DNA from: Bifidobacterium longum subsp. longum JCM 1217
Lineage (GTDB): Bacteria > Actinomycetota > Actinomycetes > Actinomycetales > Bifidobacteriaceae
Reading direction: 5' to 3'
Length of the DNA: 32,000 nucleotides
Assembly (NCBI RefSeq): GCF_000196555.1
Contig: NC_015067.1
Span: 1,170,001 to 1,202,000 of the forward strand
A model generated the notes under the pieces. The model had not been told where the DNA came from and made no database searches. It saw only the letters and a program-made list of their open reading frames with translations. Numbering within the stretch: position 1 is the first letter of the stretch; every line of letters starts with the position of its first letter. This document shows, piece by piece, positions 2,060-28,069 of this stretch. The translations under genes and the position numbers were made by a program.

Positions 2060-2821
2060 TTACTGGTTGTCCGTCTTGCCGAACATGAGGGCCTGGCTGA
2101 CGCGTCGGCTGGGGCCGGTGAATTCGATGAGGCGTCCGTGGTGGACGATGCGGTCGATGATCGCGGCGGCGAGTTTGTCGTCGGCGAAGATCGTCCCCCA
2201 TTTGCTGAACTCGATGTTCGTGGTGAAGATGATGCTGCGCCGCTCGTAGCTGCCGGCGATGATCTGGTAGAGGAGGCGGGCCCCGTCGATGTCGAAGGGC
2301 ACGTAGCCGAACTCGTCGAGGATGATCAGGTCGGCACGGGCGAGGTCTTTGAGCAGGTTGTCGAGGGCGCCGTCGCGTTTGGCCTTGCCGAGCTGGAGCA
2401 CGAGCTCCGCGGTCTGCCGGAACCTCACGCTCCTGCCTTGCTCGATGGCGAGCATGCCCAGGGCGGTGGCCAGGTGGGTCTTGCCGCGTCCCGTCTTGCC
2501 GTAGAACACGAGGTCCTGCGCCTTGGCCACGAAATCGAGGCCGGTCAGCTGCTCCTTGGTGTATCCGTCGGGCAGGCGCACGTTCGCGAAGTCGTAGCCG
2601 TCGAGGCTTTTGGGCACCGGGAACCGGGCCTGGCGCATGAGCCTTGCCCGTTTGGAGGCCTCCCTGTTGGCCAGTTCCGTGGCGAGCATGCGGTCGATGG
2701 CGTCCAGTTGGCGGGGCGTGGCCCATTCGAGCGTTTCGTCGATGGTGGCCTGCGAGATGAACAGGCTCCTCGCCCGCTCGCGCAGCGGGCCGGGGTCGGT
2801 CCGTCCGTTCTTCTGGTTCAC
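2060..2821 (-). CDS. istB: IS21-family helper ATPase IstB
   Basis: It lies in the frame of ORF 2060..3133. The GTG start (complement 2819-2821) overlaps the istA stop. Motifs seen: VNQKNGRT..., FYGKTGRGKTHLATALG (Walker A), LIILDEFGYVP (Walker B) and FTTNIEFSKWG. Confidence 0.9.
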   Translation of the reverse strand: MNQKNGRTDPGPLRERARSLFISQATIDETLEWATPRQLDAIDRMLATELANREASKRARLMRQARFPVPKSLDGYDFANVRLPDGYTKEQLTGLDFVAKAQDLVFYGKTGRGKTHLATALGMLAIEQGRSVRFRQTAELVLQLGKAKRDGALDNLLKDLARADLIILDEFGYVPFDIDGARLLYQIIAGSYERRSIIFTTNIEFSKWGTIFADDKLAAAIIDRIVHHGRLIEFTGPSRRVSQALMFGKTDNQ

Positions 2822-4284
2822 TCGTCCTCCTTGGTGTAGGCGATGTCGTATTCGCTCAGGTCCACGGGGTCGTCGTAGGCCACGGGTCCCAGGCCCGAGG
2901 CGTGGCGTGCCGCGGCCAGACATACCCCGGCCCGGTCCGTGCCTCCGGTGGATTCGAGGATCTCGAGCATGCCGGCCACGGCCGCCCGCCAGCCGCTCTC
3001 GCCGTCGGCGTGCAGCAGGGCACGCAGGCTGTCGCGCCGCGTGGCCTCGTCCTGCGCGTCGATCCATTCGCGAAGCGGGTCGGGCATCGCGTCGCGCACC
3101 CGGCTGTTGCGCCAGGCCGCCGGCCGGTCGCACAACAGCCCGAGCTGGCTCGACGGGTCGCCGCTGTCGGTCGGCTTGTCCCCGTAGGACCTCGGATGCG
3201 TGATCACGCGTTTGCCTTCGGCATCGAGGATCTCCACCTCCAGGGCCCTCAGGCCGACGATCATCTCATGGCCGGCGTGTTCGGGTCCGGCCGCGTACCG
3301 GTGGCGGCCCTGGACGGTGACGTTTCCGTATTTGTCGGCCTTCATCCTCGTCCACGTGACCACGTCGAACGGCTTGGCGGGCAGGGGCAGCAGCGCCTTG
3401 CGATCATCCTCGAACAGGCCGGCCTGGCTCTCGCCCTTCCTGTAATGGTCCTTGTCCCCCAGCTCGAGACAGCGGTCGGGAAGGCGCAGGTTGAAGTTGT
3501 CGAGGCTCCACACGCTGGGCACCGGCACGAACAGCCTTCGGCGCACGGCCCCGACCCTGGCCTCGACCGCGCCCTTCTCGTGGCCCGAGTACGGGTTGCA
3601 GAACGAGTACTCGAACCCGTAATGGGCCTGGAACGCCTGGAACAGGCGGGTCAGGCGGATCTCGTCGAACCGTCGGCGGCCCACGCCGGCGGCATTGTCG
3701 TACACGATGCGCCGGGGCACCCCGCCCAGCCATTCGAACAGGTTAAGCAAAGCCTGACACGTGCATTCCGCGTTCTCCCCGGGCATCAGCTGGCACGGCG
3801 AGATGTTCGAGTACGGGAAATCCAACACGAAATGCCGCATCCGCGTCACGACGCCCCGGTAGCGCACGTCGACCTGGCCGAAGTCCGCCTGGCATTCGCC
3901 CGGATGCCACGACAGGTCCAGGAAACCCATCTCGCGCTCCGCCATGAACTCACGCTTCAACCGGGCCACCGTCCGGGTCACCGTCGACAACGACGCCTCC
4001 ACCCCGTACTCGTCACGCAACCGCTCGTGGATGCGCGTCGCCGTGTGACGTTGCTTGTGCCAGGTCTCCCGGTCCTCGGCGAGCATGCCCTCGATCACGG
4101 GAATCCACTCGTCGAGCACCGAGCCACGGCGTCTCCTTACCGGAGGCCTGGCCGACAGGTCGTCGGCCTTGAGATACTTGCGCACGGTCGGCTCGCTGAC
4201 CTTCTCGCCGCGCGCGATCGAGGCGACGGACTCCCCATTCCTGCGCCTCTGACGGATAGACTGTATTTTGGGCATGCTGATCAT
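2818..4284 (-). CDS. istA: IS21-family transposase IstA
   Basis: ORF 2818..4284 encodes 488 aa. It has an N-terminal HTH (SVASIARGEKVSEPTVRKYL) and DDE-type core segments (CQADFGQVDV, IVYDNAAGVG, NPYSGHEKGAVEARVG). It sits immediately upstream of, and overlapping, istB. Confidence 0.9.
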   Translation of the reverse strand: MISMPKIQSIRQRRRNGESVASIARGEKVSEPTVRKYLKADDLSARPPVRRRRGSVLDEWIPVIEGMLAEDRETWHKQRHTATRIHERLRDEYGVEASLSTVTRTVARLKREFMAEREMGFLDLSWHPGECQADFGQVDVRYRGVVTRMRHFVLDFPYSNISPCQLMPGENAECTCQALLNLFEWLGGVPRRIVYDNAAGVGRRRFDEIRLTRLFQAFQAHYGFEYSFCNPYSGHEKGAVEARVGAVRRRLFVPVPSVWSLDNFNLRLPDRCLELGDKDHYRKGESQAGLFEDDRKALLPLPAKPFDVVTWTRMKADKYGNVTVQGRHRYAAGPEHAGHEMIVGLRALEVEILDAEGKRVITHPRSYGDKPTDSGDPSSQLGLLCDRPAAWRNSRVRDAMPDPLREWIDAQDEATRRDSLRALLHADGESGWRAAVAGMLEILESTGGTDRAGVCLAAARHASGLGPVAYDDPVDLSEYDIAYTKEDE

Positions 4285-4418
4285 TTGCCTTTCCGGCCCT
4301 TTCCCGAATGGATTCGAAGCACCATCAGGCTAAGGCCCACGGGTGGTCGGCATGCCTTTCTGCCTAAACCCGAAAAAACTACGTGACTAAAACCTCAACT
4401 CCCTATTGAACACATACA

Positions 4419-4426
4419 GCGCCCAG
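4419..4426. repeat. target-site duplication GCGCCCAG, right copy
   Basis: See 1968-1975. Confidence 0.85.
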
Positions 4427-4714
4427 CATCCGGTAGAGGGGGTCGCGGGCGTTCTCGCGTCCCTTGCGGGCCGCCTCGGCCGGGGTGACGCCGGGCTTGG
4501 CGTGGATGAACCGGTGGATGGTGGTCCCGTTCACGTTGAGGGCGGCGATGCCGGTGGGCGCGAGGGTGAGCGTGTTGCGCGGCGCGATCGTGCTTCGCCA
4601 ATGGTTGACGAGGGTGCTTTTGCCCGTGCCCGCCTTGCCGGTCAGGATCGAGACGCCCTGGGGTTCGGACAGCATGGCGAGCGCCTTCGCGTCGAAAGTG
4701 AGGTCTTCGGTCAT
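4419..4714 (-). pseudogene. PIF1/RecD-like helicase, N-terminal fragment (Walker A)
   Basis: ORF 4403..4714 reads [36 protein letters not shown]...LAPTGIAALNV...DPLYRMLGA, then runs into the IS end (VCVQ, stop). Joining 4419 to 1975 and removing one GCGCCCAG copy restores ...[17 protein letters not shown]... in frame. Confidence 0.85.
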
Positions 4715-4748
4715 GCGCCGGGGTATGCGTCAGTCGGCCTCCGGGCCG

Positions 4749-5045
4749 TGTATGCATTCCGGCCGGGCTGTATGCATCCGTATGCATCAGGGGATGCATA
4801 CACGCCCGTTCTCCGTTTCGGCTTGTTTCCAGCGTTCCGGGGCGGCCTCCACGCGTGTATGCATTGTATGCATCATTCCCTTATAGAGGATTCGGGAAAA
4901 GGAAGGAAACCCCATATATTGATGCATACAATGCATACAAGATAAAGGAATTATATTTTTTCCTTTATTTATAAGGGTTTTCGGGCTTTTTCCGGGCTTT
5001 TTCTGTATGCATCCCCGGATGCATACAGATGCATACATGCATACA
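4749..5045. repeat. GTATGCAT box array, copy 1 (12 boxes; contains a 20-bp-arm inverted repeat at 4856-4875 / 4920-4939)
   Basis: Forward boxes (GTATGCAT) start at 4750, 4770, 4780, 4857, 4866 and 5005. Reverse boxes (ATGCATAC) start at 4794, 4922, 4931, 5019, 5029 and 5037. TGTATGCATTGTATGCATCA and TGATGCATACAATGCATACA are exact reverse complements separated by 44 bp. The array lies directly upstream of the helicase ATG (4712-4714). Confidence 0.9.
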
Positions 5046-5056
5046 TCGGGGTGAAA

Positions 5057-5163
5057 ACAGTACACTGACGGACTGTTTTCCAGGCCCTTCCGACCCCGAT
5101 ACGGTGGATCCATGGCCCCGGCGGGCATGACGAGGGGCGGCCGACAGTACACAGACGGACTGT
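5057..5163. repeat. two copies of the 20-mer ACAGTACAC(T/A)GACGGACTGT (5057-5076 and 5144-5163), each an ACAGT/ACTGT hairpin
   Basis: I read this directly from the sequence. The first copy is nested inside an ATCGGGGT...ACCCCGAT inverted repeat. The position is analogous to the palindromes that follow box-array copy 3. Confidence 0.7.
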
Positions 5164-5245
5164 TCGCGATTGAACGCCCGGATCGCCGACCCGTATGTTC
5201 CAGAGGGAAAGGAGTCTCGCGATGGAAGACAAGGACAGGCTGGAA

Positions 5246-5299
5246 GGGTTCGGACAGCATGGCGAGCGCCTTCGCGTCGAAAGTGAGGTCTTCGGTCAT
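5246..5299 (-). pseudogene. duplicated first 18 codons of the helicase gene ([18 protein letters not shown]) with no continuation
   Basis: The stretch from 5246 onward repeats the stretch from 4661 almost base for base. After SEP the reading frame diverges into non-helicase sequence. Confidence 0.8.
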
Positions 5300-5334
5300 G
5301 CGCCGGGGCATGCGTCCGATCGGCCTCCGGGCCG

Positions 5335-5631
5335 TGTATGCATTCCGGGGCGCGTGTATGCATCCGTATGCATCAGGGGATGCATACATGCCCGTTCTTC
5401 GTTTCGGCTTGTTTCCAGCGTTCCGGGGCGGCCTCCACGCGTGTATGCATTGTATGCATCATTCCCTTATAGGGGATTCGGGAAAAGGAAGGAAACCCCT
5501 TATATTGATGCATACAATGCATACAAGAGAAAGGAATTCTGTTCTTTCCTTTATATATAAGGGTTTTCGGGCTTTTTCCAAGCTTTTTCTGTATGCATCC
5601 CCGGATGCATACAAATGCATACATGCATACA
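5335..5631. repeat. GTATGCAT box array, copy 2 (12 boxes; 20-bp-arm inverted repeat at 5442-5461 / 5506-5525)
   Basis: It has the same box order and orientation as copy 1. It is part of a 385/386-bp direct repeat (4661-5045 versus 5246-5631). Confidence 0.9.
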
Positions 5632-5641
5632 GAACAGGCCG

Positions 5642-5764
5642 GGGGGACGTCACGATTGGCTGTACAGATGGACGCTGTACAGCCACACCGGGGCGTTGGT
5701 GAGGAAAATCCTCGCTAAGGACGTCGGACTGTCGGAGGTCGAGATTCGGGAGATACTCAAATGA
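5642..5764 (+). pseudogene. hicA: hicA toxin remnant (C-terminal ~27 codons only)
   Basis: There is no start codon. The frame ending at TGA 5762-5764 reads ...YSHTGALVRKILAKDVGLSEVEIREILK, which resembles the HicA C-terminus (xLRKAILKQLGLS type). Its stop overlaps the hicB ATG as ATGA. The 5' part has been replaced by box-array copy 2. Confidence 0.45.
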
Positions 5765-5985
5765 GCGCACACGTGAAATCAGTGAAGATCGTATACCACC
5801 GTGACGAGGGCGCATGGTGGGCCGACTCCCCGGACATGCCGGGATTCTCCGCCGTCGGGGACACCTTCGACGACACGAGGAAGCTTGCCCTCGAGGGCAT
5901 CCCCTTCTACTTCGATGGCAATAGGCCCGATATCGTGGACGAGCGCATGGAGAACGGGGCGAGCCTGAAGCCCACGAGACCGTAA
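5761..5985 (+). CDS. hicB: HicB-family antitoxin (short form)
   Basis: The 74-aa ORF reads VKIVYHRDEGAWWADSPDMPGFSAVGDTFDDTRKLALEGIPFYF. This matches the HicB N-terminal domain pattern (dg.wwa.vpdlPG..a.GdT.ee). Confidence 0.7.
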   Translation: MSAHVKSVKIVYHRDEGAWWADSPDMPGFSAVGDTFDDTRKLALEGIPFYFDGNRPDIVDERMENGASLKPTRP

Positions 5986-6046
5986 GACGCAACCCGGACG
6001 CCGTTCCGGGGGCGCATGTCACATCAAAGCTTAGAATCCCCCGGCT

Positions 6047-6870
6047 TTAGCCGTGGGGAGAAGTCAAATCATCCGAAGCGAGAAAAGGCCGGTCTTGGTA
6101 GAACGTCTCGCCAACACTACCGTTGTAGCATACGGTAATTGTATTGGCTGGGTGCATATTCTCGGTATTACCGACCATTGCGGTGCAACCGTTGTTCATC
6201 GCAGAAGAACCGATAAAGCGTATATCACCCGGAATCATATTTGCTTTTGTCAGCCTTGTTCCTTTAACAACGTCAAACAGCTTCCAAATAACAAACTCCT
6301 GCCATTCGGCTATGCCCAGCGCATGCTTGCTCTCATCGGCTTGCCTCAGCCTCTCAAGGCTTGCTTCAGACTCTCAAGGCTTGCTTCAGACTCTTTCATG
6401 ACTGCCGACATGTACTCGTCCATGTAAGCCCAATCAGGCTCGCCGGACGTATCAACGGGCAAACGAATCATTTCGTCTTCTATAGTCTTGGAATTTAACT
6501 GGTCAGAATACGTATATTTGGTCAGTGACTGGCGAATCACAGACGAAACAAATAGTCCCGACAGTTCTGTTAAACCTGCATTGTGCAACATCAAGATTGC
6601 AGAACCAGCACCACCACGACCCAGAAAAGGCTTGGCTTGATAAAAAGCTGAACCATCAATCGGACTTACTGTGATGCAATTTCCTGCATCCAGCACTTCA
6701 TCATCTTTTGGCTTACACCACTTAGTGACACCATTGTTGAAATTTCCAGATGCAACAAAAGGAATATTTCCGTCTTCATACTTTGCTTGACTACGAGCAA
6801 CTGGTCGCTTTATTTCAAACAACTTACCTATCTTGAACTCTTTCCATCCGTTCGTATCAATCTTCGCCAT
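6047..6870 (-). pseudogene. hsdS: HsdS-like specificity subunit, frameshifted and 3'-truncated
   Basis: ORF 6346..6870 holds TRD1 plus the central helix (GNIPFVASGNFNNGV...ITVSPIDGSAFYQAKPFLGRGG...SEASLESLKQALRG, stop). ORF 6047..6238, with its open upstream frame (LERLRQADESKHALGIAEWQEFVIWKLFDVVKGTRLTKANMIPGDIRFIGSSAMNNG...YNGSVGETFYQDRPFLASDD), holds TRD2 in a different frame. TRD2 ends abruptly without a distal conserved helix. Confidence 0.8.
6351..6390. repeat. perfect 20-bp tandem duplication (CTCTCAAGGCTTGCTTCAGA x2) inside the hsdS central helix
   Basis: 6351-6370 equals 6371-6390. Removing one copy reads ...KESEASLERLRQADESKHALGIAEWQEF..., which fuses TRD1 and TRD2 in frame. Confidence 0.9.
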
Positions 6871-8659
6871 CGCCGTCTCCGCCTTTCCTCATGGTTACGG
6901 TCACGGACTTGTCATCGGCGCTCACTCGGCTCGAATACATCGCTGTGTCCAGCAGCTTCTCGCCGAACTCCTTTGCGTCGATGCCCTGCCGGAACATCAG
7001 GTAGTCCATCGCCGTCTTGCGGAAGTCCTCCTCGAATATCTCGAACGGCTTCTGCGGCATCTGATAGGACAGGTGCTCGGCGGGGTTCACCCACTGGCAT
7101 GTATCGTCGCCGGACTGCTTCTCGACCACATCGACCCAATGAGCCTCAATGGCCGCCCACTTGCCGTAGACGTCATGGCGTCCCTTGTTCTTGACCGTCG
7201 CCAGACCATCGGACTCCATGTAACAGGCGAAAAACTCCTTGCCGTCCTGTCCGACGCCCGCCTCGAACACGAAGATGCTCGTGGTCACGCCCACGCCGAA
7301 GAACAGGTCTTCCGGCAGCTTGATGACCTTGCGCAGGCGATGGTTCTTCAGAATGCGCTTCATCTGCGCCTTCGATGCTTTCTCCAGCTTCTTGTCCGGC
7401 AGGATGAACGCGCACTGGGTATGTGCGGGAACGCTGTCCATCACGTTCTCGACGATGGTCATGCAGCCGTACTTGTTCTCGTACGGCGGGTTCATCAGCA
7501 CCTTCGTGATCGGCTTGGACTGCATCCATTCGTTGGCTGCATCCGTGCGAGTATCCATCTGTTCAAGGTTCGTCTTGCCGTCCTTGTGAATCAGCATGTT
7601 CGCGCACGCCAGCGCGTAAATCTCGCGGTCGAACTCGATGCCGTAGAGCTGCTTGGATTTAATCTCGCCGGCCTTCTTCGTTTCCATGCCGCCGGCCTCG
7701 CGAATCATGTTCGCCATGGCCTTCACGAGGAAGCCGCCGGAACCGCACGTGGCGTCCAGAACGCAGTCGTCCATGTTCACTTCGAGAATCTTGTATATGA
7801 AGTCCGTGATGTGCTCGGGCGTGAATATCTGCCCCGATTCGGACTTTTTCTTGTAACGGTTGAACTCGTTGAAGAAAATGCCCATCACGTCCTCGCCGCG
7901 CCATTCGTTCGAGTTGACGCACTCGGAAATCTCGACGACCCAGTCGATGAAGTCATTGATTGCCTTCTGGTTGTCGGTCGTGTTCATCTTGATGTCGGAA
8001 TATTCCTCCAGCAGGATGTCAATTTTCGCATTCTGTTTGCGACTGGCTATCAATGATTTTGCAAGCGTCGAGTGAATCGCCGTATGGAACGTCTCATACC
8101 CAAGGTCTTTCAGACGCTTCAATCCCGCACCGTAACGCTCGGCAACCAACGCGCATGCCGTGAAAATCATGCGGTGGTACAGGTTCTTGATGCCGAACTC
8201 GAAATGCAGGCAGTTGTTGATACGTGCCGTCAGCTGGTAGATGCGCTCCTTGTCGATGCTATCGACGGTATAGAGCGACAGGTAATAGCCGACATGCTGC
8301 AACTTGTCGGGCGTCTTGACTTCCTCCTCGCCCTTGAACACGCGCACATCCTCGCCGTTGTACAAAACGCCGACAACCTTCTCATATTGTGTCTGCATGA
8401 TGCGGACGTTCTTCAGCACCTCGTCCACCTGCGCCTTGCCCAGGGCAATGCGCGTCGCCTTCGTCTCCAACACCAGCGCTACATCCGCCTTGTTCTTCGG
8501 TAGATACCAGCCGTCCGGCTTGTCGGCAATGCCTGAAAATCCGAGCTGGTTGAACGTCGTGAGCTGGCCAACGCCGGCACAAGCCAAATCACTATCCGCA
8601 AGTCCAAGAATGTCACGTGCCAAATCGCGCACGGCATCCTCTGTCATATTCTTCGCCAC
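6857..8659 (-). CDS. N6-adenine DNA methyltransferase subunit with an N-terminal PD-X15-ExK nuclease-like motif (HsdM-like; possibly a BcgI-A-like type IIB R-M subunit)
   Basis: The product is 600 aa. It carries VLDATCGSGGFL (motif I) and LMNPPY (motif IV). N-terminal residues 48-67 read PDGWYLPKNKADVALVLETK. The gene overlaps the specificity gene by 14 nt. No hsdR is visible in the window. Confidence 0.85.
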   Translation of the reverse strand: MAKNMTEDAVRDLARDILGLADSDLACAGVGQLTTFNQLGFSGIADKPDGWYLPKNKADVALVLETKATRIALGKAQVDEVLKNVRIMQTQYEKVVGVLYNGEDVRVFKGEEEVKTPDKLQHVGYYLSLYTVDSIDKERIYQLTARINNCLHFEFGIKNLYHRMIFTACALVAERYGAGLKRLKDLGYETFHTAIHSTLAKSLIASRKQNAKIDILLEEYSDIKMNTTDNQKAINDFIDWVVEISECVNSNEWRGEDVMGIFFNEFNRYKKKSESGQIFTPEHITDFIYKILEVNMDDCVLDATCGSGGFLVKAMANMIREAGGMETKKAGEIKSKQLYGIEFDREIYALACANMLIHKDGKTNLEQMDTRTDAANEWMQSKPITKVLMNPPYENKYGCMTIVENVMDSVPAHTQCAFILPDKKLEKASKAQMKRILKNHRLRKVIKLPEDLFFGVGVTTSIFVFEAGVGQDGKEFFACYMESDGLATVKNKGRHDVYGKWAAIEAHWVDVVEKQSGDDTCQWVNPAEHLSYQMPQKPFEIFEEDFRKTAMDYLMFRQGIDAKEFGEKLLDTAMYSSRVSADDKSVTVTMRKGGDGDGED

Positions 8660-8889
8660 TACTCATCCACCTCCTCAAGATACTCCTGCACCCACTCGTG
8701 GATGATTGCGGCAATCGTCGTCCCACGCTCCGCAGCCGTCATCTTGAGCGCCTTCTTGTCGCTCACGGTGAGCGACAGCGAGAGCGTGGTGCGCTTCTCG
8801 TCCGCCGTCGTGTCGGCGACGACGGCCTCCTCTGTCTTCTTCTGCCCGGCCTCGCGGTCGGCGGCGTATTGCTCGAACATGTTCGCCAT
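8659..8889 (-). CDS. ribbon-helix-helix (CopG/Arc-like) DNA-binding protein
   Basis: I start it at MANMFEQY..., which is preceded by AAAGGAGG with 7-nt spacing. The segment TLSLSLTVSDKKALKMTAAERGTTIAAIIHEWVQEYL fits a beta-strand plus two-helix pattern. Its stop overlaps the methyltransferase start by 1 nt. Confidence 0.65.
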   Translation of the reverse strand: MANMFEQYAADREAGQKKTEEAVVADTTADEKRTTLSLSLTVSDKKALKMTAAERGTTIAAIIHEWVQEYLEEVDE

Positions 8890-8910
8890 GGCCCGACCTC
8901 CTTTAATCAT

Positions 8911-8926
8911 TTGCACAATTGCACAA
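8911..8926. promoter_or_regulatory. tandem 8-mer TTGCACAA TTGCACAA, candidate operator of the RHH/methyltransferase operon
   Basis: This direct repeat lies about 20 bp upstream of the RHH start, in the AT-rich divergent region between the RHH gene (-) and the exonuclease gene (+). RHH proteins typically bind tandem or inverted short repeats. Confidence 0.4.
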
Positions 8927-9066
8927 TCATACATCTTGCTTTATGGGATGCGCAGACGGAACATCGCCCTGACCTCCCAGAAGTGCCGGGACCGCACCCC
9001 GCGGAACCTTCCCAAGCATCCCCGTGGGATCCGCCCCCGTGGAATGCGTGACGCATACCCGGGGGC

Positions 9067-11463: not shown

Positions 11464-12456
11464 TTAGTTGCAGGGTACCTGGACGCCTGGTTTGCCACTG
11501 GTATCAACCGCCCAGCAAATATCCTCGTACCCGTCATCACCGCCGCCGCCCTGGGACGGCGGTGGCGCGGGCTGCGGCTGTGGCGTCGGCGTATAACCGC
11601 CTCCGGTCGAACCACCTGTGGACTGCTGTGGCATGTACGCGTACCCGCCCTGGGATTGCGTGTAGCCTCCGCCCGTGTATCCGGTGTAGCCTCCGGTTGT
11701 ATCGCCCGTGTAGGAGCCGCTGTTATCCGTCTGCGCCTGGGCGGCATTGTCGGCCGCCTGCTTCTCCTTTTCGGCCCTGGCATTCGCGTCCGCATCCGAC
11801 TTCGCCTTGATGGAGTCGTTGACCGCCTTCACCGCATCCGAGATCGCCTTCCCGTCCTTCGATTTGATGGCGTTCTCCAATGCGGCGCGAACCTTGTCGT
11901 CCTTCACCCTGCCCTTCGAATCATTCAGGATCCTGGTCGCGTCGGCAACAATCTTGTCGAGCTTCGAGGCGTTCACGGCCTCGGCCTCGGCCTTGACCTC
12001 GCCTACGGTCTTCGCGTACACGTCCGCGGTCTTGTCGAGCCACGCGGTCACGGCCTTGATGTCCTTCAACCCATCCGCCGGGCATCCGGGGATATCGGTT
12101 TTCGTCTTCGAGGCCGTCTTCACCGTCGAAGCCAACGTCCCGACCGTTTTCGCGTCCCTGACCTCCGAATCCTTGACCCTGATCGCGGTCTGCAGGGCGT
12201 CCGACTTCAGGTATTCCGTCAGCTTCTTCCGCGCCTTCACCGCCCTGTCGTATGAGGTGGCGCATTCCTCTGAAGCCGCCGTCAACCGATCATGGTTCCA
12301 ATACAGGCATCCGCCGATACCGCCCGCCGCGAGGACGACGGCGCATCCGCCCGCGATCACCGGCACCAGCCATTTCGGGCGCTTCGGTTTCGAGGCGGCG
12401 CGGGCGGCCCCCGACGGTTCCGTCGGGGGCTGGGGCACGGGATTCGATCCGCTCAT
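11464..12456 (-). CDS. membrane-anchored Ala/Lys/Asp-rich protein with a Gly/Tyr/Thr-rich tail and a C-terminal Cys loop (paralogue 1)
   Basis: I start it at MSGSNPVPQPP, preceded by AAGAGGA with 8-nt spacing. It has a TM segment WLVPVIAGGCAVVLAAGGIGGCLYW, a long helical A/K/D-rich region, then ...GGYTGYTGGGYTQSQGGYAY...CWAVDTSGKPGVQVPCN. Confidence 0.75.
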   Translation of the reverse strand: MSGSNPVPQPPTEPSGAARAASKPKRPKWLVPVIAGGCAVVLAAGGIGGCLYWNHDRLTAASEECATSYDRAVKARKKLTEYLKSDALQTAIRVKDSEVRDAKTVGTLASTVKTASKTKTDIPGCPADGLKDIKAVTAWLDKTADVYAKTVGEVKAEAEAVNASKLDKIVADATRILNDSKGRVKDDKVRAALENAIKSKDGKAISDAVKAVNDSIKAKSDADANARAEKEKQAADNAAQAQTDNSGSYTGDTTGGYTGYTGGGYTQSQGGYAYMPQQSTGGSTGGGYTPTPQPQPAPPPSQGGGGDDGYEDICWAVDTSGKPGVQVPCN

Positions 12457-12516
12457 GTTATGTTCCTCTTTCATGTTTCCGCTACGCGCACGATGATAAA
12501 TCATCAAAACAATAAA

Positions 12517-12555
12517 GAGGTGTGGCATATCCCATTATGGGATATACCACACCTC
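12517..12555 (-). terminator. rho-independent terminator between the two paralogues
   Basis: On the minus strand GAGGTGTGGTATATCCCAT/ATGGGATATGCCACACCTC forms a 19-bp stem with one mismatch, followed by TTTATTGTTTTGATG. Confidence 0.7.
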
Positions 12556-12575
12556 TCACGCGGAAAGAGGAAAGA

Positions 12576-13577
12576 TCAACTGCAGGGAACTTGGACGCCC
12601 GGCTTGCCACTGGTATCACCCACCCAGCAATCTTCATAATAACCGTCATCACCACCAGAGGAGCCTCCGTTGCCGCCGCCCTGGGAAGGCTGCTGTGGCT
12701 GCGGCTGTGGCGTCGGCGTATAGCCGTCTCCGTTACCGGTGGGCTGCTGTGGCATGTACGTGTAGCCGCCGCCCTGGGATTGCGTGTAGCCTCCGCCCGT
12801 GTATCCGGTGTAGCCATCGGTCGTATCGCCCGTGTAGGAGGAGCCGTTGTCCGGCGCCTGGGCGGCATTGTCGGCCGCCTGCTTCTCCTTTTCGGCCCTG
12901 GCATTCGCGTCCGCATCCGACTTCGCCTTGATGGAGTCGTTGACCGCCTTCACCGCATCCGAGATCGCCTTCCCGTCCTTCGATTTGATGGCGTTCTCCA
13001 ATGCGGCGCGAACCTTGTCGTCCTTCACCCTGCCCTTCGAATCATTCAGGATCCTGGTCGCGTCGGCGACGGTCTTGTCGAGCTTCGAGGCGTTCACGGC
13101 CTCGGCCTTGCCCTTGACCTCGCCTACGGTCTTCGCATACGCGGTCGCGGTCTTGTCGAGCCACGCGGTCACGGCCTTGATGTCCTTCAACCCATCCGCC
13201 GGGCATCCGGGGATATCGGTCTTCGTCTTCGAGGCCGTCTTCACGGTCGAAGCCAACGTCCCGACCGTTTTCGCGTCCCTGACCTCCGAATCCTTGACCC
13301 TGATCGCGGTCTGCAGGGCGTCCGACTTCAGGTATTCCGTCAGCTTCTTCCGCGCCTTCACCGCCCTGTCGTATGAGGTGGCGCATTCCTCCGAAGCCGC
13401 CGTCAACCGATCATGGTTCCAATACAGGCATCCGCCGATACCGCCCGCCGCGAGGACGACGGCGCATCCGCCCGCGATCACCGGCACCAGCCATTTCGGG
13501 CGCTTCGGTTTCGAGGCGGCGCGGGCGGCCCCCGACGGTTCCGTCGGGGGCTGGGGCACGGGATTCGATCCGCTCAT
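12576..13577 (-). CDS. membrane-anchored Ala/Lys/Asp-rich protein with a Gly/Tyr/Thr-rich tail and a C-terminal Cys loop (paralogue 2)
   Basis: It has the same N-terminal ~250 aa as paralogue 1, nearly base for base at an offset of 1121 bp. The tail diverges (…GGGYTYMPQQPTGNGDGYTP...DCWVGDTSGKPGVQVPCS). Confidence 0.75.
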   Translation of the reverse strand: MSGSNPVPQPPTEPSGAARAASKPKRPKWLVPVIAGGCAVVLAAGGIGGCLYWNHDRLTAASEECATSYDRAVKARKKLTEYLKSDALQTAIRVKDSEVRDAKTVGTLASTVKTASKTKTDIPGCPADGLKDIKAVTAWLDKTATAYAKTVGEVKGKAEAVNASKLDKTVADATRILNDSKGRVKDDKVRAALENAIKSKDGKAISDAVKAVNDSIKAKSDADANARAEKEKQAADNAAQAPDNGSSYTGDTTDGYTGYTGGGYTQSQGGGYTYMPQQPTGNGDGYTPTPQPQPQQPSQGGGNGGSSGGDDGYYEDCWVGDTSGKPGVQVPCS

Positions 13578-13823
13578 GTTATGTTCCTCTTTCATGTTTC
13601 CGCTACGCGCACGATGGTAGCATCATGCGTGGCTTGTTCCGGTCGGTTTCCTCACATCCCGGGGATTCATCCATTCCTGGCGCTTGCCTCGGCTTCAATC
13701 ATCCCACGGTATGCGTCCCTCGGGAAGCCAACGGATTTAAACCATGAAAGTGAACCGGGTGCCGCATCCCCTGCGGCCCGTCATGGGCCGGGGGGGATGC
13801 GGCACCCTTTGCCGTCCCGCGTG

Positions 13824-16903: not shown

Positions 16904-17824
16904 CTAGCCGAGCGCGTCCCTGACCTTGACGACGATGTCGAGCAACGGGGACAGGAGACCCGTCGGCCCGTACGTCCTTCGCAGCCGATCGTATTCGACG
17001 CACGCGTCCCGGACGGTCACGTCCCAGCCCTCACGGGCGATTAGCGGATACCGGCCGGCCGTGTTCAGGCTGCGGCGCACCGGCCCGAACATCAACCGGT
17101 ATCGGAGCCATGCGAGACGCGGCCGCGCGGAATCCTCCAACGTTCGCGCCCGGTCGAGGATGAGCGTCGCACCGTAACGCAGCATGCAGGCGCGAACCGT
17201 CATGTCAAGGTCCTCCGCGTCGCCGGTCCGGTACGTCCACCCGGGGTATGGGACGCGACGGGAGCGCATGCCGTCCATCAGGCCGCGCCGTTCCCGCCCG
17301 GCCACGCATACGCTGGCGCTTAGGCCGGTGGCCCGGCCCATGACCATGAGCATCGCGGAATCCCCCGCCGTCCGCCCCATGACCAGGCTCCGCTCGGAAT
17401 AGCGGAACGGGGACCGATCCCGTCTCCACGAGGCGTCCCGATGGAAGTAGCGCGCCGGGTTCGCGTCGAACACGCCGTGCCCGATGAGGAACGGCCGTAT
17501 CGTGATATGCCCCTGTCCCGTCATGGCGGCCCATGGTACGCGCGTCCGAACCGGCCGGTCCCGTCGTGTCCCGTGATGCGGACGGGGGATGGCATCCCAG
17601 CCGGCCGCGTAGCCGACGGCCAGGAGCATGAGGCGCGGAGCCCACACGCCGCCGGCGGCGAACGGGGCGAGCACGGCGGCGAACAGGGCGAGACGCGCGG
17701 GCCATGGGCCGGGGCCCGCCGCCCGCGCCCACCGTTCCCGGCCCGCGTCCAGGAGCATGAGGGGGACGAGCCAGCGCAGCAGGATTCCCGCGGCCGGCCA
17801 GAACAGGATGACGATCGGGGTCAT
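16904..17824 (-). CDS. hypothetical membrane protein
   Basis: I start it at MTPIVILFWPAAGILLRWLVPLMLL, preceded by GGGAGG. There are two or three N-terminal hydrophobic helices. I recognise no family. Confidence 0.55.
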   Translation of the reverse strand: MTPIVILFWPAAGILLRWLVPLMLLDAGRERWARAAGPGPWPARLALFAAVLAPFAAGGVWAPRLMLLAVGYAAGWDAIPRPHHGTRRDRPVRTRVPWAAMTGQGHITIRPFLIGHGVFDANPARYFHRDASWRRDRSPFRYSERSLVMGRTAGDSAMLMVMGRATGLSASVCVAGRERRGLMDGMRSRRVPYPGWTYRTGDAEDLDMTVRACMLRYGATLILDRARTLEDSARPRLAWLRYRLMFGPVRRSLNTAGRYPLIAREGWDVTVRDACVEYDRLRRTYGPTGLLSPLLDIVVKVRDALG

Positions 17825-17827
17825 GCC

Positions 17828-17860
17828 TCCCGTATGCGTCCGTCCGGAACGCATACGGGA
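17828..17860. promoter_or_regulatory. inverted repeat TCCCGTATGCGT-N9-ACGCATACGGGA in a divergent intergenic region
   Basis: The 12-bp arms are perfect and each contains the ACGCATAC box. The repeat lies between the starts of 16904..17824 (-) and 17913..18608 (+). Confidence 0.6.
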
Positions 17861-17912
17861 GGCATGCAGCAGGGGACGCCCGTCCCCGCACCCACAAGGA
17901 AAGGAAACCGTC

Positions 17913-18923: not shown

Positions 18924-20234
18924 TCAGACGGCGAGCCTTTCGCGCACGCGGAGCGCCCAGTCGACCGCCATGGCGGCCTGCGGGGGCACGACCCCGTTGC
19001 CCAGGGCGCGCAGTTGGAGGTTCCTGTGATTGCCGTCCACATGCCGCCAGATCGCCGGATCGGTGACCCAGCCGTCCTCCAGGCCCATCATCCATTCCAC
19101 GAACCTCGGGGATAGGTGGGCGGCCGACGGGAACCGGGGGCCTTCGAATCGGGTCTTCCAATAACCGAGCACGCTTTTGTCGGGCAGACGGGTCGCGGGG
19201 ATCGGGATGTCCGGGTCCATGTCCTTGCAGCCGGGCCAGAACATGGGGTCGATGAGGCTCATCCCCCGGTCGGTTTCACGCCAGAGCGCGAGCATGCGGT
19301 CGCGCATCGGCTGGTCCAGCCGGGCTTTCGGATGCGCGTCGAACGGGGCGTGGCGGGCGAGCCAGTACGGTTCGAACAGCGTGGGGTCGTCGGCGTTCGC
19401 CCCGACCCAGCGGCGCAGGCCGCCGGTCGCCTGCGTGGGACAGGGGGCGGGACGGCCGGACACCCGCTCCCAGCGGCGGATCGCGGCGGCGAACCGGCCG
19501 AAGCGCACGCCCCGCCCGTCGTCCAGACCCCAGAGTCCCCCATGATAGGGGCCGGGCGCGGGGATCGCGCGCGTCCCCTGTTCGACGGCGCCGGTCATGC
19601 ATGTCTGGTCGTTCCTCTGATTGCGGCCTTTCACGTCGCTGGCGCGCGGCGTGGGCATCATATCCACATCATCCGTCATCACGTCCTCCCTCAGGTTCCC
19701 GGTCGAATCGCGTCGGCTCCCGTCCCGGTCGCCGCGACGCAGGACGCGTTCCAACGCGGCCCCGTCGCGGGGCGCGATCGCATCCATGCAGTTCGGCGTG
19801 GCGAACAGGCGGGCTTCCGGCAGGATGTCGATGTCGTCGCTCTTCTCCGCCCAGTCGGCGACGGTGACCGCATGCCCCATGGCCGCGCGGCGTTCCGGGA
19901 TCATCGTGCCCCCGTTCCACTCGTTCGACGTGGGCGTGGGCAGGTGGTCGATGTCGTCGCGCAGGTTCCGGTAGCCGGCGCCTTTTCCGGCGCGCGGCCG
20001 TTCCGCATCCGCATGCGGGGGCAGCATGTCCATACAGTTCGGCGTGCCCGGCAGTTCGTTTTCGCTCATGCCCGTCGTATGCGTTCCCATGATCCGGATC
20101 TCCCCCGCGTCGAGGATCGCGTTCACCAGGGCGACGCCCCGCCAGTTCTCCCCCGGCCGCCAGCAGCCGCGCACCGTATGCCGGGTCGCGTCCATCACCG
20201 TCGGCGTGGGCAGCCACAGATCGTCATCAGTCAT
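18924..20234 (-). CDS. C5-cytosine methyltransferase, C-terminal portion (TRD repeats plus motifs IX-X)
   Basis: LPTPT, TPNCMD, LPTPTSNEW and MPTPRASDVKG repeats are present. FGRFAAAIRRWERVSGRPAPCP and SPRFVEWMMGLEDGWVTD...QLRALGNGVVPPQAAMAV give the ENV-family C-terminal motifs (GNxVVP). Motifs I-VIII are absent. The start could be ATG 20234 or GTG 20240. Confidence 0.7.
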   Translation of the reverse strand: MTDDDLWLPTPTVMDATRHTVRGCWRPGENWRGVALVNAILDAGEIRIMGTHTTGMSENELPGTPNCMDMLPPHADAERPRAGKGAGYRNLRDDIDHLPTPTSNEWNGGTMIPERRAAMGHAVTVADWAEKSDDIDILPEARLFATPNCMDAIAPRDGAALERVLRRGDRDGSRRDSTGNLREDVMTDDVDMMPTPRASDVKGRNQRNDQTCMTGAVEQGTRAIPAPGPYHGGLWGLDDGRGVRFGRFAAAIRRWERVSGRPAPCPTQATGGLRRWVGANADDPTLFEPYWLARHAPFDAHPKARLDQPMRDRMLALWRETDRGMSLIDPMFWPGCKDMDPDIPIPATRLPDKSVLGYWKTRFEGPRFPSAAHLSPRFVEWMMGLEDGWVTDPAIWRHVDGNHRNLQLRALGNGVVPPQAAMAVDWALRVRERLAV

Positions 20235-20415
20235 GGCCACGGGTATGCGTCAGGCGGGGCAGGCGTATCGGATCATGGAAACGGGACGGTCCCCGCCGTT
20301 CCAGACCCTTAGTCTTGGCCGCATGGACATCATCCGCTTGACTTCCTCCCCCGCCTAAAGAGGCGGGAGTCTGCGCCACCCAAACAAAGATCAAGACTCC
20401 CAGTATTTCCTTCAT
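20227..20415 (-). CDS. possible 62-aa peptide with a hydrophobic N-terminus inside the methyltransferase intervening sequence
   Basis: GGGGGAGGA lies 6 nt before the ATG. The product reads MKEILGVLIFVWVAQTPASLGGGGS.... Its stop overlaps the next ORF start by 8 nt. The only support is the RBS and the open frame. Confidence 0.3.
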   Translation of the reverse strand: MKEILGVLIFVWVAQTPASLGGGGSQADDVHAAKTKGLERRGPSRFHDPIRLPRLTHTRGHD

Positions 20416-22238: not shown

Positions 22239-22280
22239 ACGCGGCTGTATGCGTTCCGAGGCATTCGAAAAAACCCGTCA

Positions 22281-22742: not shown

Positions 22743-22875
22743 GCCCGCGCGCATGCGTCCCCGACGCATGGCCTCCGGTTCCGCGGACGGGTTCGAGGAC
22801 ATGGTGCTCACGGCCGTCGACCTCGGCATCGGCCCGACGACCATTCCCATCCGACGGACGGTCCACAAGACGACG

Positions 22876-24493: not shown

Positions 24494-24548
24494 TGCCGTT
24501 CCTCCGTTTCGACGGTGTTGTGCGCCCCGGGTATGCGTTCCCCGTCCG

Positions 24549-25775
24549 TCAGAAGAGCGGGAGGCTTGCGGGGCGTTCGAGCCGGTCGGCCGTGAGCGGC
24601 AGGTACGTGGGGTCGAGCTCCGTGGCCGCGCACCGCAGGCCTTCCCGCCGGCATGCGTCCAGTGTGGTGCCGGAGCCGGCGAACGGGTCGAGGACGAGGC
24701 CGTGGGGCGGGCATGCGAGGCGGGCGAGCCATCGGGTCAGGTCCAGGGGTTTGACGGTCGGGTGGGCGAGCCGTCTTTCGCCCGCCGGCACGGTCAGGGC
24801 GAGCGCCGCCGTGTCGAGCAGGCACGCGGGGTACGCGTCCGCCCCGGATTCGAGTCCCAGGCGCGCGCAGCACGCCTTCCACGCCTTGTCCCGTGTCCGG
24901 GGGCGGACGATGCGTTCCAGGACGCGCACGGGCCTGTCCTGCGCTTTCGGGCAGTAGTAGAAGCGCGGCGCGTCCGCGGGCAGGAGCCGGGCCATGGCCT
25001 TGTCCATGAGGACGTTCGACGGGTGGCGGCCCGGTATGCGCGGCCCCATGGGCCTGGGCGTGTCCGAATCGCGGAACGTGTCGCCGCCGCGCGGCGCGTC
25101 CGGACGCCCCCCGGCGGTCGCGTTGAGCCGGTAGCGGCGCCCCAGCTCCCCCATGTCCGCGTCCAGGGCGCAGGCGGCCACGTTCAGGGCGCCCGTCCCG
25201 TGGTCCATGAGGTTGCGGCCGAGCATGGACTCGCGGGGGCGCTGGGCGACGAGGATCGGCTCCCATGCGGGTTTGAGCGCCGGGTTGAACCCGCGCCAGG
25301 GCCGCGCCTCGCGGGTCTTCGCCTCGTAGCGTTCCGTGTAGGCGACGTTGCGTTCCAGGGACGCGGAGTCGCGTATGACGCCGGTCCGGTCGTCCTTCAC
25401 GCCGAGCGCCCGGTCGACCGCATGGTCGCCCCATTCGCCCTTCGGCATGCCGGACGCGTACAGCCAGCAGAACTGGTCGCGGATCAGCCAGCCCGCGTCC
25501 TCCATGGCGCAGGCGAGCCGGTGCCAGGTGCGGGGCGAGCCGAACACGAGGGCGAACGCGCCGGGGCGGACCATGCCGAGCATGGCCGTCCAGAATTCCG
25601 GGTCGAAGGCGATGCCGGTGGAGTCCCAGCGTTTCACCTCGCCCGCGGTGCCCAGGCCGAGCTCGTAGGGCGGGTCGGTGACGATCGCGTCCGCGGGCGC
25701 GTCGAGGAGGCCGGGCAGGCGTCTCGCGTCCGCGTTGTACAGGGTCAGGCCGTCATGGTCGATGAATGGTCTCAT
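24549..25775 (-). CDS. beta-class N6-adenine/N4-cytosine DNA methyltransferase (DPPY ... FAGSGTT order)
   Basis: I start it at [20 protein letters not shown]. Motifs seen: [11 protein letters not shown] (motif IV), GRHPSNVL and [16 protein letters not shown]...[15 protein letters not shown] (motif I). The track ORF extends upstream only by reading through the box array (MMHTMHTR...). Confidence 0.85.
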
Positions 25776-25815
25776 GGGCCCCGTGTATGCGTCCGCCGGG
25801 GCGGGCGTCGGGCCC

Positions 25816-26114
25816 GTATGCATTCCGGGCGGGCTGTATGCATCCGTATGCATCGGGGGATGCATACATCTTTTCTTTCCGTTTCGGCTTGTTTCCGACG
25901 TTCCGGGGATGGTCCGGAGGCGTGTATGCATTGTATGCATCATTCCCTTATAGGGGATTCGGGAAAAAGGAAGGAAACCCCATATATTGATGCATACAAT
26001 GCATACAAGAGAAAGGAATTATATTTTTTCCTTTATATATAAGGGTTTTCGGGCCTTTTCCCAAGCCTTTTCTGTATGCATCCCCGGATGCATACAGATG
26101 CATACACGCATACA
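25816..26114. repeat. GTATGCAT box array, copy 3 (11 exact boxes plus 1 ACGCATAC variant; 20-bp-arm inverted repeat at 25923-25942 / 25988-26007)
   Basis: It has the same order and orientation of boxes and the same AT-rich core as copies 1 and 2. It lies between the N6/N4 methyltransferase start (25775) and the XRE gene. Confidence 0.9.
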
Positions 26115-26129
26115 AAACGGGCCGGAAAA

Positions 26130-26191
26130 CTTTACAATATTGTAAAGCCCCGGCCCCGGACTTTACAATATTGTAAAGTCCGGGGCCGGGG
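26130..26191. promoter_or_regulatory. 18-bp palindrome CTTTACAATATTGTAAAG (26130-26147) plus a 44-bp perfect palindrome (26148-26191) containing a second copy; candidate operators of the XRE regulator
   Basis: CCCCGGCCCCGGACTTTACAAT|ATTGTAAAGTCCGGGGCCGGGG is self-complementary over all 44 bp. It ends 28 bp upstream of the XRE ATG. Confidence 0.6.
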
Positions 26192-26219: not shown

Positions 26220-26771
26220 ATGGAAGACGGGAACGTGAAGGCGACGCTCGACATGCTCGCCGGACTGGGACTGGACGTGCGCGTGATGCGCGAGACGCCG
26301 TTCCTCGCCGTCGTGGAGAACCCCGCCATCCCCTCGCGCAGGGTCGCCGTCGCCGTCCCGGACGGGGACGGGCCCGCCCGGGCCGCCATGTTCGAAACCG
26401 ACCCGCGCACCGGCCGCAACCGGCCGCACGGGGATTCCGCGGCCGTCCCCCGCGACGACCCGTGGCCGACGGTCGCCGGCATGTGCCGGACATGGCTGGC
26501 CGGGCTCGGCGCGCTCGGGGACGCCGCCGGGCTCACCCGGGCCGAACTCGCCCGCAGGACGGGCGTCGCGGCCACCAGGATCAGCGAATACGCCCGGCCG
26601 CGCCCCGGGCGCGCGGATCCCGCCAACATGACGCTGCGCACCGCCCGCGCACTGGCCCGCGCGCTCGGCGTCACCATCGACGCCCTGTACGACACCATGG
26701 CGATGCGCATCCCGGAAAACGGGCCGACGGCCCGACAGGCGGGAACATCCGATCCGGCCCGCCGGGCATGA
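26220..26771 (+). CDS. XRE-family helix-turn-helix regulator (HTH in the C-terminal half)
   Basis: GGAGGA lies 4 nt before the ATG. The product reads MEDGNVKATLDMLAGLG...GLTRAELARRTGVAATRISEYARPRPGRADPANMTLRTARALARALGVTIDALYD, which fits the XRE pattern. Confidence 0.7.
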   Translation: MEDGNVKATLDMLAGLGLDVRVMRETPFLAVVENPAIPSRRVAVAVPDGDGPARAAMFETDPRTGRNRPHGDSAAVPRDDPWPTVAGMCRTWLAGLGALGDAAGLTRAELARRTGVAATRISEYARPRPGRADPANMTLRTARALARALGVTIDALYDTMAMRIPENGPTARQAGTSDPARRA

Positions 26772-27982: not shown

Positions 27983-28069
27983 CAATGGGCTCCTTTCCGA
28001 TCATGGTGGGCCGCCCCACGATGGTTGCGGTCCGACGGTTCCCGTCAGCGTCCGGTATGCGTCCCCGGC

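Follow-up and report, generated by a model that had tools for sequence, protein, structure and literature searches.

We identified a module of about 300 bp, built from twelve copies of a short box, that occurs three times in a stretch of 32,000 nucleotides of Bifidobacterium longum subsp. longum JCM 1217 (NC_015067.1, positions 1,170,001 to 1,202,000). This whole stretch is called the window below, and coordinates given without a locus name refer to it. The box GTATGCAT or its complement has 35 exact matches in the window, compared to 0.37 expected and a maximum of 3 in 100 shuffles, and all 35 are confined to three blocks (4750-5044, 5336-5630 and 25816-26105). With F for the box and R for its complement, module A (4749-5045) and module B (5335-5631) share the order F F F R / F F - R R / F R R R, that is, twelve exact boxes in three clusters. 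Module C (25816-26114) has 11 exact boxes, and its box 12 is the variant GTATGCGT (26106-26113), which is the commoner state of this box among relatives. The three copies align across about 300 bp with an identity of about 90-95%, and each adjoins the 5' end of a leftward gene. Next to module A this is the 5' fragment of a PIF1-like helicase gene (4403-4714, minus strand, gene start at 4714), next to module B a duplicated helicase 5' stub of about 55 nucleotides (5246-5299), and next to module C a gene encoding an N6_N4 DNA methyltransferase (24549-25775, minus strand). An earlier note, made from the letters of the window, had described the boxes of module A and their order, the two further copies and their adjacency to leftward genes; all of this was recovered by box mapping and alignment, except that its count of twelve exact boxes per copy applies to A and B and not to C. 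The module is thus a real and conserved box array.

In module A, the left cluster FFFR (4750-4801) and the right cluster FRRR (5005-5044) flank a central dyad with perfect 20-bp arms, TGTATGCATTGTATGCATCA (4856-4875) and TGATGCATACAATGCATACA (4920-4939), separated by a spacer of 44 bp. This inverted repeat, a second palindrome (5004-5027) and phased A-tracts on the minus strand (4975-5002) had been noticed before and were found again. The AT-rich hairpin AAAGGAA-N9-TTCCTTT (4944-4966) has a loop of 9 nucleotides, not 10 as noted earlier. Mirror symmetry of the module, also proposed earlier, is kept by box order and by inner spacings of 10 and 15 bp; at the outer ends the spacings are unequal (20 versus 8 bp), and the boxes at 4770 and 5019 are therefore no true mirror pair. 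In the canonical module type, to which we return below, A/T tracts are phased at about 10 bp in both spacers. Inverted repeats of 34 bp lie near the module ends in a subterminal position. The GC content of the 300-bp blocks that carry a module is 47-48%, compared to mostly about 65-75% in the flanks. Modules A and B are the product of a single tandem duplication (5245-5630 versus 4660-5044, 95% identical across 387 bp). To the right of modules A and B we observed a different set of dyads, ACAGTACAC[T/A]GACGGACTGT twice and CTGTACAGATGGACGCTGTACAG once, at 5057-5076, 5144-5163 and 5660-5682, which may be further operators of rightward genes.

A pattern scan of metagenomes yielded 117 loci; matches from low-GC marine metagenomes were discarded, as these are simple AGTATGCATACT-rich repeats that are unrelated. 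Six copies of the module are present on a 186-kb IMG/VR contig that is a close relative of the window, and one copy on a 43-kb contig from another genome. An exact-pattern scan of GTDB, with one genome per species, gave a single chance match and no module, showing that the module is absent from the species representatives. Three module types were distinguished: the canonical 12-box type, represented by 44 distinct sequences from isolate and gut-metagenome contigs; an 8-box type, which occurs in lower-GC relatives, often as tandem pairs or triplets; and a 12-13-box type in which GTATGCAT is intermixed with GTATGCGT. Among the 44 canonical copies the minor-allele frequency is 0.0085 in box columns (7 of 96 columns variable) and 0.076 in spacer columns (89 of 202 variable), a roughly ninefold lower variation in the boxes. 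The canonical geometry is F-20-F-10-F-15-R, ~62, F-9-F, ~57, R-9-R, ~73, F-15-R-10-R-8-R. Canonical and 12-13-box maps taken together read F-20-F-10/11-F-15-R, ~55-64, F-9-F, ~55-57, R-9-R, ~63-73, F-15-R-10/11-R-8/10-R, so that the box maps of the two types are nearly superimposable while their spacers are essentially unrelated. The 8-box type retains the central dyad and the gene-proximal cluster. Box spacings are close to whole helical turns. Judged from the alignments, the conserved boxes and their conserved geometry are the signature of a predicted protein-binding array on one face of bent DNA.

Two further observations concern the arrangement of these arrays. In the 8-box type, tandem triplets and quadruplets occur with units 390-1400 bp apart (locus L076, 1100-2300; locus L059, 7178-9639), and behind each unit come an AT-rich stretch and 30-bp hairpin repeats (CATCTTCTACTGCCCGTGTCTTCGGGCAAT). 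In locus L055 (CP049767.1, 2614-2967) the right cluster is fused to an inverted copy of the central region at a shared ATGCAT core, which looks like template switching at a quasi-palindrome.

The arrays are oriented with respect to genes. Canonically oriented modules point with their left side to the gene start, 45-55 bp away and with fixed polarity. Arrays of all three types lie upstream of N6_N4 methyltransferase and PrimPol genes, and arrays of at least two types upstream of an AAA_10 ATPase operon, an exonuclease gene, an NT5C/RNA-ligase operon and surface-protein genes. This association between array and operon has been kept despite diverged intervening DNA, which argues for a role in gene expression and against the origin, centromere and mobile-repeat explanations.

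A thirteenth box lies between the array and the gene. In 34 of the approximately 50 copies with enough flanking sequence, ACGCATAC is found 21-35 bp beyond box F1, the outermost box of the left cluster, followed by 6-9 nucleotides (mostly 8) and an ATG; about five more copies, in front of a gene for a RusA-like protein of 275 amino acids, have the variant GGCATAGC-N8-ATG. We refer to this proximal box as F0. In module A it reads ACGCATAC in gene sense (4723-4730, minus strand) and lies 8 nucleotides upstream of the helicase ATG at 4714. The variant ACGCATGC, again in gene sense, precedes the helicase stub next to module B (5308-5315, minus strand), and the proximal box of module C (25785-25792, minus strand) lies 9 nucleotides upstream of the methyltransferase ATG at 25775. 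In the 8-box type the sequence is GACGCATAT-N8-ATG, with a stronger resemblance to a -10 element. F0 and F1 are 21-35 bp apart without a phase lock, which argues against activation that depends on the face of the helix.

The same one-mismatch box also occurs without an array. Outside the modules, ACGCATAC and GTATGCGT together are found 10 times in the window compared to about 1 expected, and an isolated proximal box is located 8 (rarely 7 or 9) nucleotides ahead of the ATG in more than 15 genes. In the window, genes that follow this box-N8-ATG rule are an exonuclease gene, three methyltransferase starts and several genes of no known kind; in related loci, including those of the 12-13-box type, they are PrimPol, a ResIII helicase and others. 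All starts behind box-N8 are ATG and none has a Shine-Dalgarno sequence, and with one exception there is no open reading frame (ORF) in the upstream 60 nucleotides. Where the ATG is more distant, an intervening leader with a normal ribosome-binding site is present. Neither a conserved -35 region nor a host-type -10 element (TANNNT) was found at the box-N8-ATG starts examined. This configuration suggests compact promoters, as read from the sequence. With the box at -16 to -9 of the ATG and without a Shine-Dalgarno sequence, the transcripts of these genes would probably be leaderless and start at the ATG. A group of 12 tRNA genes likewise has a module and its proximal box in front, and the proximal box therefore acts in transcription and not in translation. 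Its interpretation as a translation signal was discarded on the same ground. In locus L023 (100-2604) the 12 tRNA genes are transcribed away from the module, with the proximal box in front.

The isolated boxes of the window are distributed over several genes. On the plus strand, ACGCATAC at 9051-9058 lies 8 nucleotides before the start (ATG 9067) of the gene for the RNase T-type exonuclease; relative L019 has a complete module just upstream of this site. On the minus strand, boxes at 22247-22254 and 20243-20250 lie 8 nucleotides before ATG 22238 of a C-5 methyltransferase gene and ATG 20234 of another methyltransferase gene, respectively, and a second box in the reading frame of the latter (20077-20084) lies 7 nucleotides before ATG 20069. 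This methyltransferase ORF of 436 amino acids thus holds two in-frame units of box plus ATG (20069-20250), 55 codons apart, which suggests alternative starts or isoforms. Two inverted proximal boxes, GTATGCGT-N9-ACGCATAC (17832-17856), are part of a palindrome (17822-17866) with perfect 18-bp arms, CATGCCTCCCGTATGCGT-N9-ACGCATACGGGAGGCATG, and two mirrored ATGs. The minus-strand ATG at 17824 opens an ORF of 306 amino acids, and GC content at third codon positions is coding-like for the leftward ORF only. The remaining boxes are also on the minus strand. The variant ACGCATGC (22751-22758) is found 8 nucleotides before ATG 22742 of an ORF of 134 amino acids, and a proximal-type box at 24531-24538 is followed by a 37-nucleotide leader with a GGAGGA ribosome-binding site and ATG 24493 of an ORF of 173 amino acids. 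Proximal-type boxes at 28055-28062 and 13709-13716 lie about 70 nucleotides upstream of the gene for an Enc34-type single-stranded DNA-binding protein (27308-27985) and about 110 nucleotides upstream of a glycine-rich surface-protein gene (12576-13595), respectively.

These observations lead us to favour, with modest confidence, the interpretation that the module is a cis-regulatory multi-operator array of large conjugative-type elements of B. longum, bound by one predicted element-specific DNA-binding protein. According to this model, a single sequence-specific protein, specific to the element family, would bind the twelve sites with the consensus (T/G)GTATGC(A/G)T(C). The sites would be presented as three clusters of four with whole-helical-turn spacing, separated by intrinsically bent A/T-tract spacers, and the array would occupy the region about 40 to 340 bp ahead of a compact promoter, whose marker would be the proximal box ACGCATAC, the thirteenth, located at -16 to -9 relative to the ATG. 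Wrapping or looping of the clusters onto the proximal site could then give cooperative, high-occupancy, switch-like control. The arrays would control the main operons, namely those for replication, the conjugation ATPase, the orphan methyltransferases and the tRNA array, and single sites would overlap the core of many leaderless promoters. Since the same proximal box stands alone before many other genes, one protein would thus control an element-wide regulon. Repression would be the more likely sign of control in the resident state, because the proximal site covers the -10/start region and because the distance between array and promoter is not phase-locked, although an activating or loading role is also conceivable. 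The boxes, their conservation and geometry, the polarity of the arrays toward genes and the proximal-box rule are all directly observed, and it is the binding of a protein, its identity, the leaderless transcripts and the sign of regulation that we infer from them.

Several results weigh against this interpretation. Pfam and PHROGs searches of about 90 ORFs, among them a batch of 43 proteins, from about 80 kb, which is about 40% of the element, gave no candidate for the binding protein; the only DNA-binding-type matches were an Xre-type helix-turn-helix (HTH) protein, which has a different palindromic operator of its own, a weak ribbon-helix-helix (RHH) match and a HicB-like protein. A scan for sigma-70 consensus promoters in both module types scanned returned none. 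Some of the 8-box tandem arrays (L076) are flanked by convergent genes and have no protein-coding gene immediately downstream. The similarity between copies could also partly stem from recent duplication or gene conversion and not from selection; the comparison across types, as far as sequences can tell, argues against this as an explanation for all of the similarity. Clustering of ORFs across the three module types to single out the regulator was given up, as it proved too noisy in high-GC DNA.

The earlier note had listed replication origins, partition centromeres, clt/TRS-type transfer loci and heavily repressed divergent promoters as possible functions, without choosing between them. The promoter/operator option is favoured, supported by the fixed polarity, the same operons in three diverged types and the single sites 8 nucleotides before starts, and the origin and centromere options fit less well. 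An origin or iteron array, with boxes bound by a PrimPol/D5-like primase-helicase or another initiator and AT-rich spacers for unwinding, is an unlikely alternative that accounts for the short asymmetric boxes in both orientations around AT-rich DNA (47-48% GC in flanks of about 65-75%), and a gene for PrimPol and DUF5906 adjoins an array in all three types. The opposed half-arrays also recall the layout of oriC. Iteron-type origins occupy one or two loci per replicon, beside the initiator gene and with an AT-rich unwinding element. The arrays have AT-rich spacers but number at least six in the 186-kb contig and at least nine in a 191-kb contig, that is, at least 6-9 per element, they lie with strict polarity upstream of many unrelated operons, and single boxes stand at a fixed 8 nucleotides from more than 15 start codons; an origin would not be expected to have any of these features. 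Positive control is, in our estimate, rather improbable: the 8-mer would be the core promoter element for an element-encoded sigma-like factor or activator, and the arrays would be enhancer-like sites for its loading or recruitment. The position of the proximal box at the -10 of apparently leaderless genes, the missing -35 and host-type -10 (TANNNT) elements, the tRNA operon among the targets and the arrays upstream of presumably highly expressed operons all fit this. Against it, the ORF scans brought up nothing sigma-like or RNA-polymerase-like, the boxes occur in both orientations and in dimer-like inverted pairs (15 bp centre to centre), unlike the way in which a sigma factor reads a -10, and the distance from array to promoter has no phase lock. 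A related proposal, likewise unlikely in our view, is that ACGCATAC at -16 to -9 is the sole promoter element of leaderless genes, recognized by an element-encoded sigma- or initiator-like factor diverged beyond recognition, which the 12-box arrays, as enhancer-like platforms of conserved three-cluster geometry, load or sequester. The element would then have a transcription code of its own that follows a logic like that of DnaA boxes or T4 late promoters. A partition centromere, possibly doubling as an operator, seems improbable enough that we give it little weight. Short iterated boxes in direct and inverted orientation, bendable DNA and several dispersed copies near promoters would be expected of one, and such sites are known to double as operators. 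Yet the ParA-type Walker motif KGGxGK[ST] was not found in the 660 kb of redundant sequence that surrounds arrays, one copy sits in a 2.34-Mb chromosome record and is probably integrated, and the single proximal boxes at start codons are left unexplained. Pfam scans of the partly sampled element found no ParA or ParB families.

Three further explanations have a still lower probability. In a single-strand promoter or origin of the Frpo/ssi type, the module, folded within the strand being transferred, would switch on leading-region genes early, for example those for orphan methyltransferases and single-stranded DNA-binding proteins (SSB). Either strand indeed folds strongly as single-stranded DNA (-76.7 and -76.5 kcal/mol, z = -10.6 and -9.0), all window copies have one orientation, and the downstream orphan methyltransferases, ssDNA-binding protein, helicase and exonuclease resemble a leading-region repertoire. 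The fold is, however, due entirely to the inverted copies of one box. Across the 44 copies the box pairs show no compensatory change, the predicted pairs outside boxes have 360 broken versus 11 compensated sequence-by-pair cells, and between types the identity and spacing of the boxes are conserved and not the pairing. One array in the 186-kb contig is apparently inverted together with its genes, if loci keep the orientation of the contig. Because of the lack of compensation, and because a hairpin needs complementarity and not twelve copies of one word, we rank this Frpo/sso-like explanation as very doubtful. The chance appears slim that the module is a mobile repeat, similar to a miniature inverted-repeat transposable element, or serves site-specific recombination or the exchange of cassettes. 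The 34-bp inverted repeats at its ends, a site at about 8945-8990 of the window that is empty here but occupied in a relative, and the frequent tandem duplications and gene stubs at module borders would be compatible with mobility. There are no target-site duplications, though; the filled site includes a 131-bp helicase fragment and other flanking DNA and is not a clean insertion, the junctions have features of microhomology or template switching, the polarity of the module to the gene start is always the same, and the same operons carry arrays in diverged element types. Cassette exchange or site-specific recombination was rejected, as the junctions lie away from the boxes and bear gene fragments. 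Least probable of all is a cluster of ATGCAT methylation or restriction targets tied to the adjacent methyltransferases, which the earlier note had raised given the ATGCAT inside each canonical box; four methyltransferase genes are present in the window. No support for this link was obtained. ATGCAT is, if anything, rarer outside the modules (3 versus about 8 expected), the interchangeable GTATGCGT lacks it and is nevertheless used in 12-13-box arrays and in all proximal sites, and it is the whole asymmetric 8-10-mer and its orientation that are conserved. Taken together, the origin, centromere, single-strand promoter, mobile-repeat and methylation explanations are less supported than the operator array.

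The genes around the modules point to the kind of element that carries them. The PIF1-like helicase gene next to module A is disrupted by an IS21-family insertion sequence (IS) element (istA 2818-4284, istB 2060-3133), its 3' part lies at 908-1963, and the gene is intact in relative L036 (451 amino acids). The window codes for four methyltransferases, including the N6_N4 enzyme next to module C, and for the RNase T-type exonuclease, the Enc34-type single-stranded DNA-binding protein, an HNH protein and large surface proteins. Related loci encode an AAA_10 ATPase of 1382 amino acids, of which full-length homologues with about 30% identity are found on large actinobacterial plasmids, and they also carry a PrimPol + DUF5906 primase, a sortase, a SpaA-type pilin, an RNA ligase and the array of 12 tRNA genes. 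The N6_N4 methyltransferase protein is present residue for residue in B. longum assemblies, for example in 379 (LKUQ01) and VMKB44 (JRWN01). From this identity and from the genes of the related loci, the element is, on sequence grounds, taken to be large and of conjugative type, with B. longum as its host. One complete genome has the methyltransferase gene and an adjoining rearranged module inside a 2.34-Mb chromosome record, and this copy is therefore probably integrated.

Distal to module C, the perfect 18-bp palindrome CTTTACAATATTGTAAAG occurs twice (26130-26147 and 26161-26178) ahead of an Xre-type HTH gene (26220-26771, plus strand). One to three copies of CTTTACAATATTGTAAAG, exact or as a variant such as CTTCACAATGTTGTAAAG, lie distal to many canonical modules (for example L012, L023, L041, L066 and L146); neither the 8-box nor the 12-13-box type has it. 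A second, different regulator probably uses this palindrome as its operator. In L016 (about 667-2640), L056 and L057, the HTH gene is separated from the palindromic operators by an inserted IS607-type element with a serine recombinase and TnpB, and L012 holds an IS200/IS605 pair.

Other features of the window were also observed. A HicB-like antitoxin gene (5761-5985) is preceded, in the region 5615-5985, by an apparent C-terminal-only remnant of a HicA-type toxin (…LVRKILAKDVGLSEVEIREILK), and module B with the helicase stub appears to replace the 5' part of this toxin gene. The promoter region of a small RHH gene (8659-8934) contains the direct repeat TTGCACAATTGCACAA at 8905-8945. The RHH gene is followed by genes for an N6 methyltransferase of 600 amino acids and an HsdS-like specificity protein, in a low-GC stretch (6000-6900, 44-48% GC), a layout that looks like a controller-protein arrangement. 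Glycine-rich surface-protein paralogues stand in tandem, two in the window (11464-13595) and four in L019 (6882-11237), and their copy number therefore varies.

The regulation of large conjugative elements in B. longum, an infant-gut commensal and probiotic, is almost unstudied. The array and its single-box counterpart would define an element-wide regulon that includes replication, the conjugation ATPase, anti-restriction methyltransferases and a tRNA array, and from the box-N8-ATG rule one would expect a class of leaderless promoters that have no host-type -10 element. The arrangement in three four-site clusters, kept across diverged elements, would be an unusual and well-defined substrate for cooperative nucleoprotein assembly, and array and box could provide tightly controlled, orthogonal expression parts for bifidobacterial genetics. 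The earlier note could not assign the module to a described repeat family, and neither could we. BLAST searches of the module and of the 8-box-type unit against PLSDB and phage records gave no match, and Rfam gave none at any gathering score, with sub-threshold, chance microRNA-like matches that are due to the dyad. In the literature searched for the motif together with Bifidobacterium, and for the accession, no such element or array is described. A proposed operator array of a mobile element with this unusual geometry and the predicted box-N8-ATG rule is thus undescribed in that literature.

Several known systems share part of this organization. Stoperators of Cluster A mycobacteriophages, bound by the L5 repressor gp71, are single sites of 13 bp, at no fixed distance from start codons. 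As here, one short asymmetric site recurs many times across an actinobacterial mobile genome, within short intergenic regions and in line with the direction of transcription, but stoperators are not known to form 12-site arrays with dyad geometry. The omega heptads of inc18 plasmids and the ParR-parC iterons of R1 form one uninterrupted block of 7- or 11-bp repeats that doubles as a centromere with a ParA partner; the dispersed centromeres of N15 are a further example of centromeres. With omega and ParR the module has in common 7-10 or more short boxes, direct and inverted, in a promoter region, and one protein that would act cooperatively at several promoters. It differs in its three separated clusters, bent spacers and length of 300 bp, and no ParA-type Walker motif was found in the 660 kb around arrays. 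In the KorB regulon of IncP plasmid RK2, one element-encoded protein acts from about 12 dispersed sites at variable promoter distance and silences many operons, in a manner similar to that proposed here. KorB is a ParB-type clamp that binds a single 13-bp OB palindrome per locus, whereas no ParB-like protein was seen in the element ORFs scanned. The module belongs to none of the stoperator, omega/ParR and KorB systems. Frpo/ssi sequences in the leading regions of F and ColIb-P9 are, like the module, dyad-rich repeats of about 300 nucleotides in several copies upstream of anti-restriction and SSB-type genes; they work via an imperfect long hairpin and not via a repeated word, whereas pairing outside the boxes is not maintained here. 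The ori/crr octamers of phage P4, the SaPI origins and the DnaA boxes of oriC are asymmetric boxes of 8-9 bp, and their initiators can act at promoters. They resemble the module in having short boxes in both orientations around AT-rich DNA, and a primase-helicase gene lies beside some arrays; they differ from it in copy number per element, gene polarity and the fixed 8-nucleotide distance to start codons. The clt/TRS loci of TraB-type actinomycete plasmids consist of 8-bp repeats near traB, which encodes an FtsK-like protein, with one locus per plasmid. The module was rejected as a member of this class, since it occurs at multiple loci and the conjugation ATPase is of the AAA_10 type; no FtsK/TraB family was found in the scans.

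Among elements of the same host genus, the comparison with the Bifidobacterium megaplasmid pMP7017 is the closest one. This plasmid has a 34-bp plasmid-specific motif in 19 copies just upstream of the start sites of many operons, including those for defence and replication, which overlaps the -10, is absent from chromosomes and was proposed to be a transcription-factor site (PMC10832533). Its sequence, AWAYATGYTATACTGAATATGTCCACATAAAAWA, is unrelated to the box, and it occurs as single sites and not in 12-box arrays. Homology of the present element to pMP7017-type plasmids is limited: the match at the DNA level covers only a surface-protein gene, a B. longum megaplasmid that we take for one of the pMP7017 type has a single chance GTATGCRT in its first 50 kb, and the conjugation-type ATPases are 32% identical, as expected of distant relatives. 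Sequence comparison thus makes the element only a distant relation of the pMP7017 megaplasmids. Both motifs are nevertheless private to a large bifidobacterial conjugative element and recur near starts, which makes the pMP7017 motif the nearest published analogue of the array and its proximal box.

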